A stretch of 29,417 nt of DNA from a virus (Duplodnaviria; Caudoviricetes), in the IMG/VR virus record IMGVR_UViG_3300029319_000333, positions 1 through 29,417 of that record, one strand, 5' to 3'. Shown in pieces: positions 2,203 through 27,016 of the stretch. A program made the position numbers and the translations under genes. Under the pieces are notes generated by a model. That model did not search any database and was not told where the DNA came from. It worked only from the letters and a program-made list of their open reading frames with translations. Position 1 is the stretch's first letter. The number at the start of each line of letters is the position of its first letter.

Positions 2203-3624
2203 CTAGTTGTAATTGATGTAGCCTTTTTCAATCATAAAGTCTTCAAGCGCTGTTGGCCCCGGGTAGGCACCGTTGTTTTCGTGTAGGTAGCGACTAAAGA
2301 ACTGTTTGATTTCTTCTACCTTGTTCATGTTGCCGCCGAAGCGATAATTGCCGGGACTGCCGGACATGAAGTTACTTTCGCCAACCCATTCGTCATCAAG
2401 GCCAACAGCGTTCATCATGCGCTCAATCGCGCCAGTCATTTCCGCTGTGCTTACCTCGTAATCGTGGTTTGCATATTTGGTTCTAAAGTCTCCGCCGACG
2501 CTGTAGGTTTCAGCGTTGCCAGCAATCTCAGGCGCGCTGCCCCCGCCCGACTCTGACCGCGCACGGTCCACAACGTCAACAGCCTCGCTAAACTTGCCCT
2601 CGTCCATTAGCTCTCGATACTCTTCTGGTAGATCGATGCCCATGCGTACGGCCTCAAGCTCAATTTGATTTGCCTGCTCTTGTGCCGACATCTCTCGACC
2701 AAACTTTCTATTGATGTCGCGCTCTTTTAGCTCAAGCTGACGATCCAGCCACGACAGCTGCATGTTCCTGGTTCTTTCGCGTGCAGTAATTTGAGCCTCT
2801 GCTCTTTCGCGGGCTCCAAGGGTGGCGGTTGTAGCAATGCCGCCCATTAAGCCGCCGCCAACAGCCCCACCCATTGCCGCGTTAATTTCAGCCTGCCGCC
2901 TCTGAGCCCGAGCAATGTCTGCATCAATGCCCTGAAGAGCCGCTTCCTCATCAGCCTTAGCCTCTGCAATCAGCGCCTCATACTGGGCGCGCTCATCGGC
3001 ATACGGGTCTCCGCCCGCTGCCGCACCCTGTTCTCCCATGCCACCAGCGCCACCAAGCTGCGGACCCTCTCCTGGAAGCTTCGGCACCCCTGGAGGCTGT
3101 CCTCCCGGCAATGGGCCAGGAGCAGGCATCTGCAATGGTGGCGGAACTTGCTGCATCCCACCAGCCAGGCCAGGGCCGGGCTGACCGGGCATGACCTGCG
3201 TCTCGCTGCCACCAGGAAGCTGCTGTGTAAACACGGAGCTTTGGGGGCTTGGGCCGGCTGCCATTGGTGCGCCGCCAGGAGAACCTGCTGGCACCTGCAT
3301 TGGAGGCATTGCTCCCTGAGGAATCTGCTCGCCAAACCCAGCAAATCCGCTGCCACTCATTGGCCGAAAGCCACCTCCGACCTCAGACGGCAGCTGCATT
3401 TGTTGCTGCATTGGCGCCTCTTGCTGCGGTGGTGGCGATGGCGCGCGTGGTCTTTGCCTTTGCTGGCTTCCTGATGGAAACCCCGCTACCTGCATAGAGG
3501 GCACACCGGGAAGCTCTGGGCTCATTCCCTGCCCTGAGCCTTCTCTTGACTGGCGAGCCCTTTCGTCAATGCGACGAAGGTTTTGCTGGCGTGCGCCATT
3601 CTGCCGGTTGTTCATTTGTCGCAT
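2203..3624 (-). CDS. Putative ejection protein; P/Q/G-rich disordered N-half, glycine zipper and coiled coil
   Basis: 473 aa; AMGGAVGGGLMGGIA segment; operon position. Confidence 0.65.
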   Translation of the reverse strand: MRQMNNRQNGARQQNLRRIDERARQSREGSGQGMSPELPGVPSMQVAGFPSGSQQRQRPRAPSPPPQQEAPMQQQMQLPSEVGGGFRPMSGSGFAGFGEQIPQGAMPPMQVPAGSPGGAPMAAGPSPQSSVFTQQLPGGSETQVMPGQPGPGLAGGMQQVPPPLQMPAPGPLPGGQPPGVPKLPGEGPQLGGAGGMGEQGAAAGGDPYADERAQYEALIAEAKADEEAALQGIDADIARAQRRQAEINAAMGGAVGGGLMGGIATTATLGARERAEAQITARERTRNMQLSWLDRQLELKERDINRKFGREMSAQEQANQIELEAVRMGIDLPEEYRELMDEGKFSEAVDVVDRARSESGGGSAPEIAGNAETYSVGGDFRTKYANHDYEVSTAEMTGAIERMMNAVGLDDEWVGESNFMSGSPGNYRFGGNMNKVEEIKQFFSRYLHENNGAYPGPTALEDFMIEKGYINYN

Positions 3625-3633
3625 GTTTTACCC

Positions 3634-4212
3634 CTAAGCCTGCAAGTCTCGTTCAAGAAGCAAAGTTACCCCAACAAACCCAGCGGCGTTAAGCACGCCC
3701 GTGCCCGTAGTCGCCCCTTGCCGTAAAACCAACACTCGGTTCTGGCTGCTGTGGTAAGCAACAGCCGTTGCATCAAGCGTTGCCTGGCCAGAGTTGCCGC
3801 TCCCGTCTGCGCTAACAGTCAGAGACTCTTCGTCGATTAAAACCGTAACGTCAGTTAGAGTTCCTGAATTATAATACGCCAGTGCTACGTCAATTGTTCC
3901 AGCGGCAGAGCCCGTGTCCGAGATGAACCATGCAGCTGTTTTTAGCGTCCAGTCGTTTTGCGTAGATGACAGACCAGGGAGAGGAGCTATGGCAATGACG
4001 GAGCCGGCGCTACCCCAGGTGTAAGCGGTGTTGTCGAGCACGATAGTCACGTACTCCTTGGACGCCGCAAGCTTGCTAATTGCAATGCCTGCTGAGGCCT
4101 TGATGTCGGTATTGTCGATTGCACCAAACTTGTTAGCAATGGACGTAAAGTTGCCCTCAAGCTCTGACTTTGTGATCGTGCTTGAAAGCGATGTCGTTAA
4201 GGTCAAAGACAT
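3634..4212 (-). CDS. Virion structural protein (tail appendage-like, beta-rich)
   Basis: 192 aa, S/T/A/G-rich; IKASAGIAISKLA resembles fibre N-terminal segments; AGGAG RBS. Confidence 0.6.
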   Translation of the reverse strand: MSLTLTTSLSSTITKSELEGNFTSIANKFGAIDNTDIKASAGIAISKLAASKEYVTIVLDNTAYTWGSAGSVIAIAPLPGLSSTQNDWTLKTAAWFISDTGSAAGTIDVALAYYNSGTLTDVTVLIDEESLTVSADGSGNSGQATLDATAVAYHSSQNRVLVLRQGATTGTGVLNAAGFVGVTLLLERDLQA

Positions 4213-4221
4213 GGGTTTCTC

Positions 4222-4875
4222 CTATGAAATTTCTGCGCCGAGCTTTGACAGGTAAATTACCCACGGCACATTAACCTCGTACTCTTTGCTAAACTGGCTC
4301 AAGGGTATTTTAGCAGGCATTGGGCTTAGTGCGCTAGTGAAGGCGGCTGCGTCATAGAAGGCCGGGATAAGCCTGTTCGCAGAGTTTTCTACGCACGCAA
4401 CGCCGACCTGATGGCCCACGTTAATGCCCAAGTAGTACACGCTGCCAACCCTTAGGGTCGCTGGGTTTTCTAGGGTTTTCTCAATAACACCTGTTGCCCC
4501 AGCAGTTACCCGCACCTCTGTACCCGACACAACCCTAAAGGCCCGCTGCCCGTGCTCTCTGTCGTATCGGTATATCGCAAACCGGATTAACCTCGTTGCC
4601 CCTGGCGCAGAGGTAATTCTAACCCTGGCTTTCGCTACCTCAACGCCGCGCACTAGCTGCGGAAAAGTAAACAGGTACAAGCCAAACTTGTTAAACGTTG
4701 ATGCTGAGCCATCGGATGTTAGGGCAGTAACGTCTGCGCCGTATGGGTCAACGGTCGATACGTACCATCCATCGTTGACAGGTATTTCGCGCACCCGCGC
4801 ATTGCGGCTTTCAATCTGATTGACGTAGGCATCCGGGCCTCGGCGCTCGCCCCTGCCGTGTGGGATCTGCACCAT
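4222..4875 (-). CDS. Hypothetical virion protein (beta-sandwich-like)
   Basis: 217-aa ORF immediately after the nozzle gene. Confidence 0.65.
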   Translation of the reverse strand: MVQIPHGRGERRGPDAYVNQIESRNARVREIPVNDGWYVSTVDPYGADVTALTSDGSASTFNKFGLYLFTFPQLVRGVEVAKARVRITSAPGATRLIRFAIYRYDREHGQRAFRVVSGTEVRVTAGATGVIEKTLENPATLRVGSVYYLGINVGHQVGVACVENSANRLIPAFYDAAAFTSALSPMPAKIPLSQFSKEYEVNVPWVIYLSKLGAEIS

Positions 4876-4877
4876 GG

Positions 4878-6944
4878 CTATCTCCTGCCGCCGGGATTGT
4901 AGCCAACATCAACGCCCGCAATTGTCATGGGCGTATTCTTCGCGTCGTGAGATATTTTGACTTGGAAAAAGTCAGCTTGCTTTCTAAACGACAAGCGCCG
5001 GGCAAGCCTTCTGTCCTGCACGTACTTGTCAGTGCCCGACACGGCTGTTCCGTAAACGGCGTCGCTGGCTGTTGTCATGGAGATGGTGCCCGAGGACTCA
5101 CTGTTTTCGTCGTCGTTGTGTCGCAACGCAACAGACAGCGATGACGATTGATTGTCCCCAAGAATCTCAACCTGTCTAACCGTGGTTTTTACGTTTGAGT
5201 TTTGTCCAATGCGTTGCGTTAGTATGTTGCTGCTAATTGCAGCGCCGTGGTCATTGTTGCCAACGCCAAACTCAAAGACCTGCGAATGTTGATTGATAAA
5301 GTACAGGCGAAGATTGTCATACGCGTCTTCATCCGCTAACCAAAACTTGGCCGCTACATCCCAAATCCAAAACGCGTTGTTCTTGTAGTCGTAGACAATT
5401 GTCCGGTTGTTGTCGAAAGATCCATCGACCGCCACAGAGAGAAGATAGCAGCCCTGTGTTTTCCAGTTTACCGAAGCTGCCACGTGCCTTCTTGACGGGT
5501 TGATAGACCTAATAGTGTCGCCAATTCTGTCTGACAGCTTAATAATGTTTGGCGTTCCGTCGAACCGATAAATACCGTCTTCCGCCAAAAATATAAGAGC
5601 GCCTTTAACCCGCTGAATGCTGGCGTTGCTCACGCATCCAACGCCAGCTACAACTCTGATTGGGATAAAGTTATCGACACCAGTTGCTTGGTTTTCTCCA
5701 GCCGCAACCATTGTCCAAATTGAATCACCCTTAAAGATAACGACACTTTCGCCAAGAGCAGCCATTCCCGTAATGGGACTGTTGTCGTCCTCCATGATTG
5801 GAGCAAAGGCCAAAGACGTCCACACCTTATGATACGGAGCAGCCGCAGACCAGCGCACGGTAAATGGCTCATCCTCCATACCAGCACACCAAAGCCTGCC
5901 GTTGTAGAAAATGTTAAACCTAGCCTTTGGCCACTCCTCAAGGAGCACAACAAAATCCCTGTCATAGGGCGCGTCTTCGCCGACCGCAAAGTCAGCATCC
6001 TCGACAACTGCTAGGTCTGCGTCAACAGCGGTGCTTAAGTCCTTTGAAGAGGTAAACCTCATAACCACACCAGCATAGGCAACAAAGGCTTCGTCAAACT
6101 GAGGAACAACTGCAATGTTGGCTAGGTCGTCCTCAACAACGCGAGCAATGTATCCAGAGACGCTAAAGTCTTCTAAATCCAGCGTTGAGCCCAGTACAGC
6201 CCTAGCTCCAGCCGCCGGGTTGGTAAGATAGAAATAACGTTTCTTTGTTTTAAACTGTGCGACAAACAATCCGCGAGTAACGTCAAACTCTGGGCTTACA
6301 ATTTGATTGGTTGCGTCGGCATTGTTTATCTCGACCTCAGAATCAAGCGCGTTGTCTTGAATGGTGAATCGCAAGTAAAAGGCCGTTTTGTTGTTAATTG
6401 TTGATGACGCCCAGTCACCAGGGGCAACAAAAGAAAACGTAAACGAGCTTGCATCACCAAGGTGCTTGGACACTTTTGACGTGGAGATGCGCTCCGAAAC
6501 GCGCAGGTACTTGTACTCTGTGCCGTTCCAATACTCTGCTTTAAACCAGGTGTTGTTGGAGTTTGACCTGCCGCTTACAAAGGCGCCCTTATACCCAAGA
6601 AGCTGATCCCTATCGTTACTTGTTCCTAGGCTGGATATCTCCTCGAATCCAATAAACCAATGGCTACCGACACCTAGGCTGTCGAGAGTAAGCACCTCCC
6701 CCTCAGTGGCACTTGTGTATGTACCACTGACGAGCTTGTGCATTTCTTGTGATTGGGTGGTGATAGAGTCACCGGCTACTGTCATAGAGTCAAAGCCAAC
6801 AAACCCTGGTCTCTGCTCAACAGCGCCGTTTGGCGCCCACACGTTTAGGGCGTCAGCGCACTCGTCCGGATCGGCTAGGTCGGTCTGCTCGTTGATACCT
6901 TTATTGCACCGAAGAACAAGGTGCCTGTAGTTTTGCCGACCCAT
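4878..6944 (-). CDS. Tail nozzle / tail tubular protein B (P22 gp10 / T7 gp12-like beta-propeller)
   Basis: 688 aa; N-terminal GIN...L.DPDEC.DA.NV...NGAVEQRPGF; YNGRLW..G; ITGMAALGESVVIFKGDSIW; GVGCVSNASI; LIFLAEDGIYRFDG. Confidence 0.85.
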   Translation of the reverse strand: MGRQNYRHLVLRCNKGINEQTDLADPDECADALNVWAPNGAVEQRPGFVGFDSMTVAGDSITTQSQEMHKLVSGTYTSATEGEVLTLDSLGVGSHWFIGFEEISSLGTSNDRDQLLGYKGAFVSGRSNSNNTWFKAEYWNGTEYKYLRVSERISTSKVSKHLGDASSFTFSFVAPGDWASSTINNKTAFYLRFTIQDNALDSEVEINNADATNQIVSPEFDVTRGLFVAQFKTKKRYFYLTNPAAGARAVLGSTLDLEDFSVSGYIARVVEDDLANIAVVPQFDEAFVAYAGVVMRFTSSKDLSTAVDADLAVVEDADFAVGEDAPYDRDFVVLLEEWPKARFNIFYNGRLWCAGMEDEPFTVRWSAAAPYHKVWTSLAFAPIMEDDNSPITGMAALGESVVIFKGDSIWTMVAAGENQATGVDNFIPIRVVAGVGCVSNASIQRVKGALIFLAEDGIYRFDGTPNIIKLSDRIGDTIRSINPSRRHVAASVNWKTQGCYLLSVAVDGSFDNNRTIVYDYKNNAFWIWDVAAKFWLADEDAYDNLRLYFINQHSQVFEFGVGNNDHGAAISSNILTQRIGQNSNVKTTVRQVEILGDNQSSSLSVALRHNDDENSESSGTISMTTASDAVYGTAVSGTDKYVQDRRLARRLSFRKQADFFQVKISHDAKNTPMTIAGVDVGYNPGGRR

Positions 6945-15854: not shown

Positions 15855-17489
15855 TTAGGGACGGTACGGAACGCCAGCGATAGGCCGCTCTGGGAACAGG
15901 TTCCCAGGGCTCGTCATGTTGTACCGATATCTAACCCCTGGTGGCTTTGGATTAAGCATTTTGTCTGCTTCTGACCGTGGGTCATAGGCTAGCTCATACT
16001 GCCTTCTTAGCTCAGTCACGTAATCACTTATGTCTAGCGGCGGAAGCTGGAGAACTGGCCGTTGCCCTGGAAAGGTCTCCGGGGCTAAGGACTCTGCCGT
16101 AGCGGGGGCTGGTCCTGCAAGCTCTGTTGGTGGCCCCATTGGCAAAGAGCCTGGGTTTTCGGTGATATACTTCATCACTTTTGTCCAGTTGTTGAGCTTG
16201 TTGCCCTCTTTCGCAGACGCGGGCAAGCTGTTGTACCAGCTGTTATAGTCCCCCATGTCGTTGAAGAGAGCCATTACCTGGTTCTGCATTCGGCTTGCTG
16301 GCTTACCTCTTTTCGCTGTGCCGCCAGGCTGTGCCGGTTGGTCTACCTGAGCACTCATGTCCATCCCAGCACCAGGTCCCATTCGAGGAAATGCGGGAGC
16401 GCCTGTATCAACTCCAAGGTAGTCAGGCTGGAACATGCCCTCAATCATCCTGTTGAGACGGGCTCTCTGGTAATCAACGCCCCCAAAAGACTCACCCATT
16501 GAGTCCACTGAAGGTGTAGGCAAAGGTGCGGCGGTTGGTCCGCTCATCATTGCATCCTGTGGCACATATGCCTCTGCCATCGGGTCACCCGCTGGTCCCC
16601 CGACGGAACTCATCATCGCGCCTTGAGGAATAGATGGCCCCGCCATGGTGCCGGCCATAAGCTCCTGGTTCAAGTCCACCGGACCTGGGCCAGACGGTGC
16701 ACCCATCATCGCCGACAACCCAGATCGAAGCTGCTGGTCCTGCCTTCCGGGAATAGCCTCCAGCGGCAGCTGCCCAAGGGCGGCTGGGCCTTGTTCATAC
16801 TTTTGAGGGTTGGCCATCATGTCAGCGATGCGCATTCTTTCGCCCTCGCCGTACTGCATGGGGAAGGAGTCATCAGGGCTTCCGGATGCCGCTAACGTTT
16901 GGTCCAGGTCTCGCCCCAGGTCTACCATCGGCGGCACGGGTGGTCGGTCAAAGTCAAACTCAAAAGTCCCCGGTGGCGGACCCCCAAACTGCAACACCTC
17001 AGGGCCCGGAGGCGGCTCTTCGTATCTCTGTGGGTTTGCCACCATGTCCGCAATCCGCATGCGCTCACCCTCGCGGTATTGCATGGGGAAGGAGTCGTCT
17101 GGGCTCCCGGAACCAGCAAGGGTGTTTGCAAGGTCCTGACCTAGGTCTACTCTCTGAGGGACTGGATCTCTAAAGCCCCGAATCTCCATGCCTCCAAAAG
17201 CAGGCGCCTGGCCCCCAATAGTTGGCTGCCCTAAAGAGACAGCGGGCTGCTCGTATTTCCCAGGATTAGCCATCATGTCGGCAATCCTCATCCGCTCAGC
17301 TTCTCCGTACTGCATGGGAAAAGAATCATCAGGGCTTCCAGACAATGCAAGCGTTTCAAGCAGTTCTCGCCGCAAGTCTACCGGGGGCCTAGCCATGGGG
17401 CCCATGGTGATTGGGCCGGTCTGAACCGATGGCTCACCAGGCCTCGGAAGTCTTCCAAAAAGAATGTCCCCGATATCCACTCTTGCCAT
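15855..17489 (-). CDS. P/G/M-rich protein with three 44-aa internal repeats
   Basis: 544 aa; AGGAGAG RBS; repeats conserved at protein level with synonymous changes. Confidence 0.8.
   Translation of the reverse strand: MARVDIGDILFGRLPRPGEPSVQTGPITMGPMARPPVDLRRELLETLALSGSPDDSFPMQYGEAERMRIADMMANPGKYEQPAVSLGQPTIGGQAPAFGGMEIRGFRDPVPQRVDLGQDLANTLAGSGSPDDSFPMQYREGERMRIADMVANPQRYEEPPPGPEVLQFGGPPPGTFEFDFDRPPVPPMVDLGRDLDQTLAASGSPDDSFPMQYGEGERMRIADMMANPQKYEQGPAALGQLPLEAIPGRQDQQLRSGLSAMMGAPSGPGPVDLNQELMAGTMAGPSIPQGAMMSSVGGPAGDPMAEAYVPQDAMMSGPTAAPLPTPSVDSMGESFGGVDYQRARLNRMIEGMFQPDYLGVDTGAPAFPRMGPGAGMDMSAQVDQPAQPGGTAKRGKPASRMQNQVMALFNDMGDYNSWYNSLPASAKEGNKLNNWTKVMKYITENPGSLPMGPPTELAGPAPATAESLAPETFPGQRPVLQLPPLDISDYVTELRRQYELAYDPRSEADKMLNPKPPGVRYRYNMTSPGNLFPERPIAGVPYRP
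16794..17381 (-). repeat. Three 132-bp coding repeats (17250-17381, 17019-17150, 16794-16925)
   Basis: VDLxx[DE]LxxTLAxSGSPDDSFPMQYxExERMRIADMxANPxxYE. Confidence 0.9.
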
Positions 17490-21207: not shown

Positions 21208-21520
21208 GTACCTTACACCGCGCGCGCCCGCGTGCGCTCGCGTACACGCGCGCGTGTTAGTATCCCGCGCGTACACGCGTGCGGTATGTAGTACACTGGG
21301 GGGGGGAGTTCCGGCAATCGTGGAAAGCGCGGCTTTGGAATTCCCCAACGATTCCCCCGGTTTACCATCGGCACCACCCGTACCCCCGAAACAAGCTCAG
21401 CGTACACGCGCACTTGCGCGCACGTCGCACGCACGCCCGCGCGCACACACGCGTCACGCACGCACACGCACCGCGCGTCCGTGCGCATGCCCGCGTCACG
21501 CGCCCGCACACGCGTTGCCA
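21208..21520. repeat. Alternating purine-pyrimidine (CG/CA) low-complexity tracts
   Basis: No purine-purine step on + over 21400-21520 or 21208-21259; GCGTACACGCG occurs three times. Confidence 0.85.
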
Positions 21521-21569: not shown

Positions 21570-21619
21570 GTGCGAATTGCATTACGCACTTTGGGCATAG
21601 TGCGCACTGGTTTACGCAC
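21570..21619. promoter_or_regulatory. Two palindromic enhancer-like sites GTGCG-N10-CGCAC
   Basis: 21570-21589 and 21600-21619, 30 bp apart, both containing TTACGCAC followed by TTT. Confidence 0.6.
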
Positions 21620-21691
21620 TTTTCTGGGTATTCTGTTTCGCACTGAACATATTCCCAGTGCAATTTCATTGGGTTTTTTCGCTGGTCAGTT

Positions 21692-21708
21692 TTGGCATCG
21701 GCCCTGCA
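21692..21708 (+). promoter_or_regulatory. sigma54 (-24/-12) promoter for the early arm
   Basis: TTGGCATCGGCCCTGCA: GG(21694-5)-N10-GC(21706-7). Confidence 0.6.
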
Positions 21709-21719
21709 TAGTCTCCAGT

Positions 21720-22246
21720 GTACCGCGACTCCGGGAATGACCGGATGATGCCTAACTACTCACCCAACTCCCCTGCGGGGGGTTTAACGGGCTGGTTGTC
21801 TCAGGGAACGTGATTTCGCGTACTGGGGCACAGAGGATACGGCAAGGGGGCCCTATAAGTCCCCCCGCGTACATAGGTACGACGGAAACGCGATTTTTCA
21901 ACGTACTGGTTCTAGCTATATGGCCCCCTTGTTCGGGGTCCCCGCGTCCACATGCGCTTGGCCCCTGTTGGGTCTATGGTGGACGATTCACGGGTTCACG
22001 TGTGGACGGATTTGGTTTTCCCGTCCTTGATAGCTAGAACCCATGCGTGCGTCTCTTTGCGCACCGTGTCAAGCTCGAAGGTTGACCTCTTGTGGCATGA
22101 ATACCCACACGGGCGATGAAAACGAGACAGAAGGTATGTTAGAAGCTAACCGGGGGATATCTCCTCCTGACACGGCTGCGGTGACACTTAGGGACAGCGC
22201 ATGCAATCCAACCCAGGCCCCTGGGTTGGCTCATAGATTGTGTGAC
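21720..22246 (+). ncRNA. Candidate large structured RNA/leader of unknown family
   Basis: Many helices with G-U pairs, e.g. 21842-52/21922-32, 21908-19/22030-41 (12 bp perfect, crossing), 21945-51/21979-85, 22004-09/22021-26, 22064-71/22168-75, 22208-16/22221-29; no credible ORF. Confidence 0.55.
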
Positions 22247-22262
22247 AGAACAGGAACGCGAC

Positions 22263-22487
22263 ATGGGCTATATGCACAAGCGACCTGTGTCTTCATGGCA
22301 CGGTCATACCGCACAGGCCAGGCTTCTTCGGAAGTCTAAGCTAGTCCCTATCTCACTCTTACACCGCCGCAGTCGGGTGACCAAGGTCTACCCGACTACT
22401 GTACAACTCAAGAATGGCGAAGTCTGGAAAGTCACAAAACAGACCAACGCCGAAGGTCATCCTTTGATGAAGAAAGTCACCAAGTAA
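22263..22487 (+). CDS. Small highly basic protein (74 aa), possibly nucleic-acid-binding
   Basis: AGGA RBS before ATG 22263; 16 K/R versus 2 acidic residues. Confidence 0.65.
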   Translation: MGYMHKRPVSSWHGHTAQARLLRKSKLVPISLLHRRSRVTKVYPTTVQLKNGEVWKVTKQTNAEGHPLMKKVTK

Positions 22488-22639
22488 CATATACCGTCGC
22501 ACAATCTGTGAGCTGCCCCAGGGGTTATACTGGGCTGGCTTGACGATTCCCATATATCCCGCGCTGCCTAGGATGCCATAGCGGCACAAACACTTATGCA
22601 TTGCGTGAACGGGTCCCTGTGGGGTCGTCTCTAAGCCTG

Positions 22640-22736
22640 CCTAGTACTGGGTTGGCTACTCAGTATGGTGGGCATAGCCAGTCTTTTAGGCTAAACACAG
22701 TCAGCCCGCCATACTGAGCAGCCAATCCAGGCTGGG
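22640..22736 (+). promoter_or_regulatory. Long RNA hairpin (27-33 bp), RNase III-site-like
   Basis: 22647-22673 pairs with 22704-22730 (2 G-U, 1 A-C); inner TAGCC/GGCTA hairpin. Confidence 0.7.
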
Positions 22737-22744
22737 AAGGAAAC

Positions 22745-23710
22745 GTGACAAGCATGAGCATCCAACTCATTACACCAGAAAAGCAGTGCAATAAATTCCC
22801 TGAACTCAACCGGGAGTTAATCACTATGCCGATCGCTCAGAGTGTGGACATTCTGGCCCGGCAAAGCGAGGACCCGCGAATCAGGGAAAAGTTCTTAGAG
22901 TCTGAAGTGGTCGAGAGCGACGACTTCAGCATGGTGATGTGGGCCGACACCAAAGAGGTGATCGGCGTCAACAGTGCCAAGTACAGGCTTGTCCATCATG
23001 CCGACGTTGCCAACATGGCAGTGGAGACAGTGGAGAAGCTAACGGGATACACTCCAGACTGGTCTTACCATAAGATTGGCAGCAAGGGTGAAGGCCTGGA
23101 TAGCATCGCTATCCACATGGACTGCCCTGGCTTCAAACCCATCCGGGTAAACAATAGTCAGTGGCTCGATGGAGACACCAACTACAAGCCGGAGGTGGGA
23201 GACCTGACAAATCTGAAGTTCTTTCTGCGGAATGGGCTAACTGGTGGCTCTTTGATTGAAGCGTGTGCTCGATTGATGCGCCTATGGTGTGCCAATGGAG
23301 CCCAGACGCCACATGAGATCGGCCACTACAAGCACAAGCATACCGCCGGGCTGGACATTGACCGACTGGCGCAAAGCTTTGACCAGATGACTCATAACTC
23401 TCGGAAGCTTCCGGCGGTGTTCAACCACTGGAACGCTACGAAGTTAGACGCATCTGAGATCGAGAAGCTTGCTAATAGTCTAGAGGAGGCAAAGGTGAGC
23501 AAGTATCACCTTAAAGGCTTCCGTGACGCAGTCTCACGCGGTGGTTATATGACCAAGTGGGCGGCGTTCAACAAGATCACCAATCGGGCAACTCACCACG
23601 CACCAAGCATCAAGAACCAGATTGCTTTCGATAAGATTATCTCGAAAGTGTTCTGGAGCGACGATGAGACCAAAGAACTGCTGAACAACAACCTTGTTCT
23701 AGCGGCATAA
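22745..23710 (+). CDS. DUF932/DUF945-family protein (start may be ATG 22754)
   Basis: IGVNSAKYRLVHH, LRNGLTGG...RLWCANG, HKHT, TKWAAFNKIT match the family motif pattern. Confidence 0.8.
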   Translation: MTSMSIQLITPEKQCNKFPELNRELITMPIAQSVDILARQSEDPRIREKFLESEVVESDDFSMVMWADTKEVIGVNSAKYRLVHHADVANMAVETVEKLTGYTPDWSYHKIGSKGEGLDSIAIHMDCPGFKPIRVNNSQWLDGDTNYKPEVGDLTNLKFFLRNGLTGGSLIEACARLMRLWCANGAQTPHEIGHYKHKHTAGLDIDRLAQSFDQMTHNSRKLPAVFNHWNATKLDASEIEKLANSLEEAKVSKYHLKGFRDAVSRGGYMTKWAAFNKITNRATHHAPSIKNQIAFDKIISKVFWSDDETKELLNNNLVLAA

Positions 23711-23715
23711 TGTGA

Positions 23716-23737
23716 GCGGCCCCCGCAGGGGGGCCGC
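23716..23737 (+). other. Strong GC hairpin after DUF932 (no U-tract)
   Basis: GCGGCCCCC-GCAG-GGGGGCCGC. Confidence 0.7.
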
Positions 23738-23759
23738 AGCACGTTTCCAACCAGCCAAA

Positions 23760-24070
23760 ACAAATCGCATAGTGAACCGTAGGCCCATAACGGGCTGAGT
23801 GACGTGGGTGAATTCTGCCATCGCAATACAGGTGGCCACTGTGCCTGCTGCAACGGGCCAAGTTAGCCGCGACGTTGACGGATTGCAGTCCGAAGGCGGG
23901 GAGCCCAGGTGAAACAGGCTGAAGCCTGGGGTCCTGCTGTGCATAATCGAAGACTTACCTCCTGGCAGCTTAACTGCTGCACGAGGTAATTGGGCAAAGC
24001 CCACAGGGATATCTGGTCAGCATATCCCCGCTGAATGGCGATCCGGGGCCTAGGACCCGAGCTGGCCACA
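23760..24070 (+). ncRNA. Second candidate structured RNA (multibranch)
   Basis: Closing helix GTGGCCA/TGGCCAC (23832-38/24063-69) encloses hairpins 23879-92, 23896-937, 23955-89, 23991-24003, 24006-28. Confidence 0.5.
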
Positions 24071-24099
24071 ATCGACTCTCAAAACAGGAGGAGCCAGTT

Positions 24100-24450
24100 A
24101 TGACTGATGAAGATGTGCATGTGCTTAACCTGCTACGCCACCGCGTTATGCAGTGCTCAAAAGGCATAAAAGAATTCGAAGGCTTGGACGGAGGACCATA
24201 CGACAGTCACATAGCAATCACTCTTAGTCAAAGGGAGTTTCTTGTGGAGAAAAGAAGCAGAGCACTGTACGCGATGCTTCTGATGAATACATGCGACGGG
24301 GTCGATGGGGCTATACGGCATTTGCGTGAAAAGATAAGCGCCGACGCTGACGACATGCACTTAAAGCATACGCTTGACGATCTACTGCGCTCCAAGCAGG
24401 CAGTGTTTATACACAAGGCATTCCAAGCAAAGGAGCCCGGTGATGACTGA
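24100..24450 (+). CDS. Hypothetical early protein
   Basis: 116 aa; AGGAGG RBS. Confidence 0.75.
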   Translation: MTDEDVHVLNLLRHRVMQCSKGIKEFEGLDGGPYDSHIAITLSQREFLVEKRSRALYAMLLMNTCDGVDGAIRHLREKISADADDMHLKHTLDDLLRSKQAVFIHKAFQAKEPGDD

Positions 24451-26801: not shown

Positions 26802-26818
26802 CAAAGAGGAGACGCGTG

Positions 26819-27016
26819 ATGGATAACCCAATCGTAAAGACCCACCTTGCTGCGACGTATGAGACGCAGGAGCAGTTGCATAAAGCAATAGAGGGCTTCA
26901 GCACGAACGGTGAGAAGGCAGCAGCCACTCTCTTGTTCATGCTAACATGGAACTTTTGCGCCAGGCAGTTTGATCTGGCTATCGAGGAGGCTGAGGATGG
27001 CGAACCAGAAACCTAA
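26819..27016 (+). CDS. Hypothetical protein (65 aa)
   Basis: GAGGAG RBS; ATG 26819 (or GTG 26816). Confidence 0.7.
   Translation: MDNPIVKTHLAATYETQEQLHKAIEGFSTNGEKAAATLLFMLTWNFCARQFDLAIEEAEDGEPET

Follow-up and report, generated by a model that had tools for sequence, protein, structure and literature searches.

Predicted tandem gene-enclosing helices in the early region of an uncultured marine phage and its relatives: putative RNase III processing units exchanged at shared junctions

The sequence analyzed here (the window) is the whole 29,417-base record of an uncultured, podovirus-like marine phage. The minus strand carries the portal, major capsid, and terminase genes, and the plus strand carries early genes for a DUF932 protein, HTH proteins, and a PD-(D/E)XK nuclease. 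In the early region, a short ORF (ORF74) is enclosed by two complementary arms. A first-pass annotation of the sequence offered two explanations, namely a mini-mRNA excisable by RNase III or a protein encoded within the RNA that it binds. The locus raises the question of what the stem is for: whether it belongs to ORF74, whether it acts as RNA or DNA, and what may become of the enclosed message. The seven runs that contained at least half of the words of the region were marine metagenomes from two studies, and the record may derive from two of these runs. No relative was found among GTDB genomes or among cultured phages, for which the best match was 30% identity over 41% of the terminase. No RNA dataset containing 21900-23700 was listed, which is uninformative on expression.

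The features of the first stem-closed unit (unit 1) are as follows.

22208..22229, plus strand: first junction palindrome, a local hairpin conserved in the related phages L001, L002, and L032
22218..22246, plus strand: 5' arm of unit 1 (inverted-repeat alignment, ORF74-orthologue alignment, unit catalogue)
22247..22262, plus strand: RBS linker, holding a variant, one base shorter, of the clade-wide start-associated motif GGARACGCGA(C)
22263..22487, plus strand: ORF74, a basic 74-aa protein of an orphan family, with homologues in relatives and no Pfam or PHROG match
22496..22524, plus strand: 3' arm of unit 1 (same three sources as the 5' arm)

The helix 22218-22246/22496-22524 has 29 positions, comprising 24 Watson-Crick pairs, 4 G-U pairs, and 1 mismatch. 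It unites two pairings listed in the first-pass annotation, 22229-46 with 22496-513 (18 bp, two G-U) and 22218-25 with 22517-24, both of which were borne out. The proposed outer extension, 22208-16/22530-38, had a pair probability of 0 in a fold of 21719-22760, since 22530-38 serves there as the base of the next unit, paired to approximately 22637-46; hence, the earlier length of 35-40 bp is too long. The expected competition with the local hairpin 22208-29 was seen in the folds: eight of nine hairpin pairs had probabilities of 0.92-1.0 before the 3' arm was made and 0 afterwards. The 249-nt loop consists of the 16-nt RBS linker, the 74-codon ORF, and 8 nt, in line with its earlier description as an RBS plus a K/R-rich ORF (16 K+R, 2 D+E).

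The pairing is well beyond chance. The unit 1 region folded with a z score of -5.9 (0/100 shuffles as good). The arm paired with the next 600 nt at -51.9 kcal/mol, compared with a mean of -23.7 for random 29-mers of the window (0/1500 as good). Among 33 window genes, ORF74 had the best flank duplex (-56.0 vs -30.4 for the runner-up). In the ORF74-orthologue alignment, the stem was 95.7% paired and more conserved than the ORF itself.

Upstream of unit 1, a promoter-like motif and two leader RNA domains were recognized.

21693..21708, plus strand: sigma-54-type promoter-like motif (TGGC-N8-TGC match upstream of the leader), with a predicted start near 21719
21908..22041, plus strand: leader RNA domain 1, closed by the 12-bp helix 21908-19/22030-41; inner hairpins covary in four phages, and there is no Rfam family
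22043..22203, plus strand: leader RNA domain 2, multi-helix (RNAalifold, four phages)

We take the motif to be of the sigma-54 type from the consensus GG-N10-GC. It was present in 9 of 14 regions (window, L001, L002, L013, L014, L022, L025, L032, and L033), some from near-identical phages. For early transcription in a phage, a promoter of the sigma-54 type seems unusual. Upstream of the motif, 21575-21665 contains TTACGCAC boxes in several copies together with an inverted repeat, and these could be activator sites. Between the divergent late and early regions, 21210-21510 is an approximately 300-nt tract of alternating purine-pyrimidine (GC/AC) repeats, also present in L002 and L032, and possibly lies near a genome end or packaging site. 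Elsewhere in the window, a 158-nt repeat occurs three times at a spacing of 225-231 nt (16769-17382) within a 544-aa minus-strand gene.

RNAalifold of the leader in four phages showed 21 of 91 pairs changed on both sides. Rfam returned no family for the window region or for six relative loci, and a tRNA search of 14 loci with ARAGORN was negative. Between 22200 and 22760, neither promoter-like nor terminator-like sites were found; since no terminator-like site separates the leader domains from the array, one transcript is plausible.

The start-associated motif GGARACGCGA(C) precedes many early starts throughout the clade, with or without stems. It occurs in the window at 21884, 22739, 24923, 25701, 26270, and 28435 and many times in L013, L014, L016, L034, and L051; with at most one mismatch to the 10-mer, the window held 8 matches vs 1.95 expected. 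Start-associated sequences of mycobacteriophages resemble it. In the sister subclade (L013 and L014), an exact 23-mer of the bacterial rRNA leader/spacer boxA region lies approximately 80-100 nt past the promoter motif. The 23-mer was exact in 49 GTDB loci and, of 12 inspected, three were 212-250 nt before the 16S start and seven after the 16S end; it is spread over too many phyla to point to a host. These sequences hint at mimicry of rRNA within the clade, but not in the window.

Relatives were gathered through DUF932, ORF74, the terminase, and a 128-aa gene. A strand-neutral inverted-repeat alignment was run on 10 early regions; L043 was read by eye only. Gene-enclosing stems were found in six of the ten (window, L002, L001, L032, L016, and L027). 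L013 and L014 have other long stems without the base motif described below, and the alignment found no gene-enclosing stems in the early regions of L034 and L051; therefore, the layout is not needed across the clade.

The unit 1 stem proved to be the first of a tandem array in the early region and is not special to the basic protein. The catalogue holds 18 units in 13 families from six related phages (17 from the scan and one added by eye), with up to five tandem units per phage. Two further stem-closed units lie in the window, beyond the single stem of the first-pass annotation.

22530..22646, plus strand: unit 2, a degenerate stem (22530-50/22622-46) with a 71-nt non-coding loop, found by eye; duplex -27.6, most pair probabilities >0.9 in the long fold
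22647..22730, plus strand: unit 3, a 27-position stem with a 30-nt loop (inverted-repeat alignment)
22719..22736, plus strand: last junction, where alternative upstream units rejoin the window sequence (loose ends and a joint in population contigs)
22754..23710, plus strand: DUF932 gene after the array (Pfam PF06067, E 4e-11), with no enclosing stem (flank duplex -20.2)

The duplex energies of the 18 units ranged from -27.6 to -53.8 kcal/mol. An RBS and ORF are tightly enclosed in 14, with the ATG 12-18 nt past the 5' arm and the stop codon 3-11 nt before the 3' arm; of the other four, three are non-coding and one carries an additional 106 nt. The helices share the base CUGGGYUGG/CCARCYCAG, which is degenerate in L016. 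Because this motif is common to the units, each junction is a short palindrome. Past the DUF932 gene, 23710-24100 is a 390-nt intergenic stretch rich in hairpins, the length of which varies among relatives.

Absence of compensatory change in the arms had been named in the first-pass annotation as a refuting outcome. Within the orthologous unit 1 stem, covariation was weak (2/29 pairs changed on both sides; 57/500 shuffles as high). Between units, the arms differ, and the best partner of each 5' arm was its own family in 18/18 units, with strong cross-pairing between families B and D, whose arms are related. The case for selection on pairing, as read from the sequences, rests on the different unit families and not on the ORF74-orthologue alignment.

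Several loci were set aside. Matches to L003 (portal gene) and L006 (unrelated virus) were due to chance. A scan for the junction pattern gave 39 loci, one of which was L001; among the other 38, the strongest seven were inspected and appeared to be chance pairing, mostly in GC-rich DNA. Window 26816-27016 had been suspected of resembling the first L016 gene, but no such resemblance emerged.

L001 carries a 260-nt non-coding unit (3468-3779) and a 106-nt tail past the ORF in unit E (4850-4955); both are candidate small RNAs from the same processing. On the reverse strand of 1-4883 of L013, a stem-closed 194-nt non-coding insert (2683-2928) with a tRNA T-loop-like piece is absent from L014 and had no ARAGORN or Rfam match.

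The strand on which pairing is preserved bears on whether the helices act as RNA. When one unit per family was counted (12 families, with two gapped rows omitted), sense-strand mismatches comprised 39 G-U vs 7 A-C (p 1.8e-6). Outside the common base, the count was 22 G-U vs 5 A-C (p 0.0015; two L016 units untrimmed), and the sense strand was more stable than the antisense strand in 17 of 18 units. This bias argues for RNA rather than double-stranded DNA operators or terminal repeats, and it speaks against the earlier proviso that the arms might be DNA operator sites only. The helices thus appear to act at the RNA level, although single-stranded DNA is still compatible with the bias. The repeats might act on DNA as unit-specific hairpins on single-stranded or circular intermediates and serve as recombination substrates, like attC in integrons. 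The units are indeed swapped at junctions (see below), attC also shows a G-T bias on one strand, and a circle from a junction-junction crossover would carry both arms as one local hairpin. This explanation is nevertheless quite improbable, for it leaves the A-form footprint geometry unexplained, no integrase-family Pfam match was found among the proteins scanned, and the PD-(D/E)XK nuclease, AAA_24 protein, and RusA would be enough for junction crossovers.

The helix geometry was examined in a register counted from the first base of the common motif. The helices of all 12 families end at positions 22-30, typically at about 26 bp, though their loops span 30-527 nt. At position 23, in the unit-specific part, 9 of the 12 families have a U-G pair (0/100000 within-arm permutations). 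A mirror-image G-U pair occurs at position 4 in 8/12 families; because position 4 lies within the common base, this wobble is inherited rather than independent. Unit 1 of the window keeps the position-23 U-G, but its position 4 is G-C, where L001 and L032 have G-U.

The two mirror-image U-G pairs span 20 bp. The idealised RNase III substrate is described as two-fold symmetric and 22 bp long, its 2-bp distal boxes included (PMC3867540). In the E. coli model substrate, the second distal-box pair is U-G, and a single box set is reported to suffice for specifying a site (PMC1540722); U-G is also reported to be enriched at the distal box in B. subtilis (bioRxiv 10.1101/2023.03.12.532304). If the U-G is read as the inner distal-box pair, which is our own reading, a 20-bp span is expected, as observed. 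The placement of the U-G pairs therefore fits, at the level of sequence, a 22-bp RNase III footprint and its distal-box geometry. The proximal box agrees poorly. Of the pair expected under the E. coli/Aquifex rule (A-U or U-A), A-U at proximal-box position 2 was found in 1/12 lower and 5/12 upper half-sites in the best register. The adjacent register gave 8/12 and 7/12, but lost the U-G symmetry, and the total scores were nearly tied (51 vs 49). B. subtilis RNase III is reported to cut duplexes closed over up to 505 nt.

The helices could instead remain uncut and hold the stop codon near its own RBS for re-initiation (closed-loop translation), or insulate genes from one another. The tight spacing of ATG and stop codon at the helix top in 14/18 units would suit such a role, and leader-trailer helices are described as having RNase III-independent roles (PMC11404451). 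We consider this unlikely, since the fixed length, the common base motif, the position-23 U-G, and the three non-coding units would be left unexplained, and a regular helix of 26 bp is described as a typical RNase III substrate (PMC3867540). When the 14 coding units were compared with shuffled arms, none supported a switch whereby the 5' arm masks the RBS as long as the 3' arm is missing.

The reading that we favor, with a probability of roughly 0.55, is that these are rRNA-style leader-trailer helices at which host RNase III is predicted to cut, which would release end-paired, monocistronic, likely stabilised mRNAs. A single transcript would start at the promoter near 21719, and each helix would close co-transcriptionally. 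A staggered mid-helix cut, in unit 1 at about 22234|22235 and 22509|22510 (+/-1), would yield an mRNA of approximately 275 nt whose ends are joined through about 12 bp and carry a 2-nt 3' overhang; this pairing would protect it from exonucleases. The units resemble leader-trailer helices in their complementary flanks around a product (18 units, 14 of them fitting tightly around RBS and ORF), in a regular helix of at least ~22 bp in all 12 families, and in the distal-box U-G of most families. The earlier proposal of an RNase III-excisable mini-mRNA gains indirect support from the G-U bias, the near-constant length, and the symmetric U-G; excision itself is a prediction.

The same structural evidence would suit an RNase III cut that acts as a shut-off signal, limiting or timing early-gene expression rather than stabilising the product; for the RNase III sites of T7, a role in promoting the degradation of transcripts has been proposed (PMC6938266). 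After a mid-helix cut, however, an intact RBS and ORF would still have its two ends paired through about 12 bp, and a simple local hairpin would do for decay. We regard the shut-off as improbable, though stabilisation and decay after the cut are indistinguishable from sequence. RNase III processing as such, with the decay variant included, is likely. A bolder extension, in which the product is an end-clamped or ligated circular mini-mRNA that resists decay and recycles ribosomes, as part of a general phage strategy of plug-and-play processed cassettes, is doubtful.

The enclosed proteins speak to whether the stem serves ORF74. Homologues of ORF74 are few: L002 (95%), L001 (50%), L032 (46%), P0002, P0003, and P0004. 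No usable Atlas match was found in addition to the null Pfam and PHROG searches. The predicted model (pLDDT 79.7) is mostly beta and had no match in BFVD or PDB (Foldseek, E 0.001). Homology to the second L016 gene was unconvincing (probability 3%). ORF74 could bind its own encoding RNA structure, in autoregulation or a ribonucleoprotein, as the first-pass annotation had proposed. Its basic composition would fit, and the enclosed proteins E and I are basic too. Against this, the same stem type encloses nine other protein families, seven of which are net acidic, homologues of two enclosed families occur without stems elsewhere, and the ORF74 model has no fold match. Binding of this kind is very improbable. 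Since the stemless homologues, in L051 and L034, belong to proteins enclosed elsewhere, the stem is a wrapper, separate from gene function.

The window, L002, L001, and L032 have unit 1 in common and diverge inside its downstream junction; the first three reconverge at the junction preceding DUF932, and the L032 contig stops earlier. Contigs of eight metagenome runs, compared with the window as a population check, likewise changed sequence at unit boundaries. Run X8 held a joint from 22524 to 22719; in runs X2, X4, and X6, loose ends lay before 22719, where another unit ends. One low-depth X8 contig had both unit 1 arms around 237 other letters, which need not be a different gene because a divergent homologue of 70 aa, for example P0004, would match that length. 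Another X8 contig, read by eye, ran in frame into 22674 from different upstream sequence and had a stop 9 nt before the 3' arm of unit 3; unit 3 is therefore likely a deletion remnant of a coding unit. In population contigs, a different 160-nt module, its ends again complementary, took the place of leader domain 2 (runs X1, X4, X5, X6, and X7: joint 22043-22202, or loose ends at 22043 or 22202).

From 22749 onward, immediately past the start motif, distant alleles take the place of the DUF932-like gene in L002 (38% identity) and L027, and also in population contigs.

Because both arms travel with the gene and the junctions share sequence, junction crossovers would move whole working units, and the helices would double as portable gene cassettes. 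No integrase-family Pfam match was found among the window genes scanned, and no integrase, RNA ligase, or RNase families among 49 proteins of relatives (46 chosen from 120 ORFs of two near-complete relatives (92%, 96%), mostly omitting structural and antisense ORFs, plus three from L001). The PD-(D/E)XK nuclease, the AAA_24 protein (which we take to be Sak4-like), and RusA are present and could recombine the junctions. No back-joint was seen in the assembled contigs of the runs examined, which is uninformative on cassette circles.

By the features tested, the array falls outside rrn operons, PeSLs, and integrons. Integrons are arrays of promoterless single-gene cassettes with palindromic junctions behind one promoter. 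The phage array shares the promoterless single-gene units, the probable single promoter ahead of them, and the palindromic junctions; unlike in integrons, no integrase was found among the proteins scanned, and the long complementarity reaches across the gene instead of being confined to a single site. In phage T7, RNase III sites are local hairpins between genes, whereas the array helix spans the gene and the product ends would stay paired. As in the array reading, host RNase III divides T7 polycistronic RNA at set sites (PMC6938266). The long-range RNase III sites described in B. subtilis are duplexes of 10-36 bp over hundreds of nt with distal-box U-G (bioRxiv 10.1101/2023.03.12.532304); as described, they are scattered in single mRNAs and form no repeated wrapper immediately beyond RBS and stop codon. 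The PeSL cassettes of T4-type phages resemble the array in that conserved intergenic linkers are the sites of gain, loss, and exchange of orphan genes (Arbiol et al. 2010, PMC2839356). A PeSL is a sigma-70 promoter with a local terminator stem-loop (PMC2839356), whereas the array has no per-unit promoter and its unit-specific arms pair across the gene. In its predicted working, the array is like bacterial rrn leader-trailer helices, in which complementary flanks enclose the whole 16S or 23S product in a polycistronic precursor; these helices are described as 30-odd bp long (~33 and 44 bp in Aquifex) and cut by RNase III (PMC11404451, PMC3074117). Unlike rrn operons, the array encloses mRNA, with up to five swappable units in tandem, and the window subclade is without boxA. 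In the titles and abstracts covered, which excluded most subscription journals and supplements, none was found on phage genes individually enclosed in such helices. To these systems, the clade adds 13 families on one register, a symmetric U-G geometry, and population-level swapping.

If the favored reading is true, these phages borrow the layout of rRNA maturation for their own messages, and the resulting gene format would have control of expression and portability in one and the same sequence. With twelve natural helices that differ in sequence but keep one geometry, the rules by which RNase III recognizes its sites could readily be tested for an unstudied marine host, and end-paired mRNA would be a simple design to try for transcript stabilisation in bacteria. 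The array also shows which orphan genes the phages exchange, and these are candidates for host-takeover or counter-defence functions.
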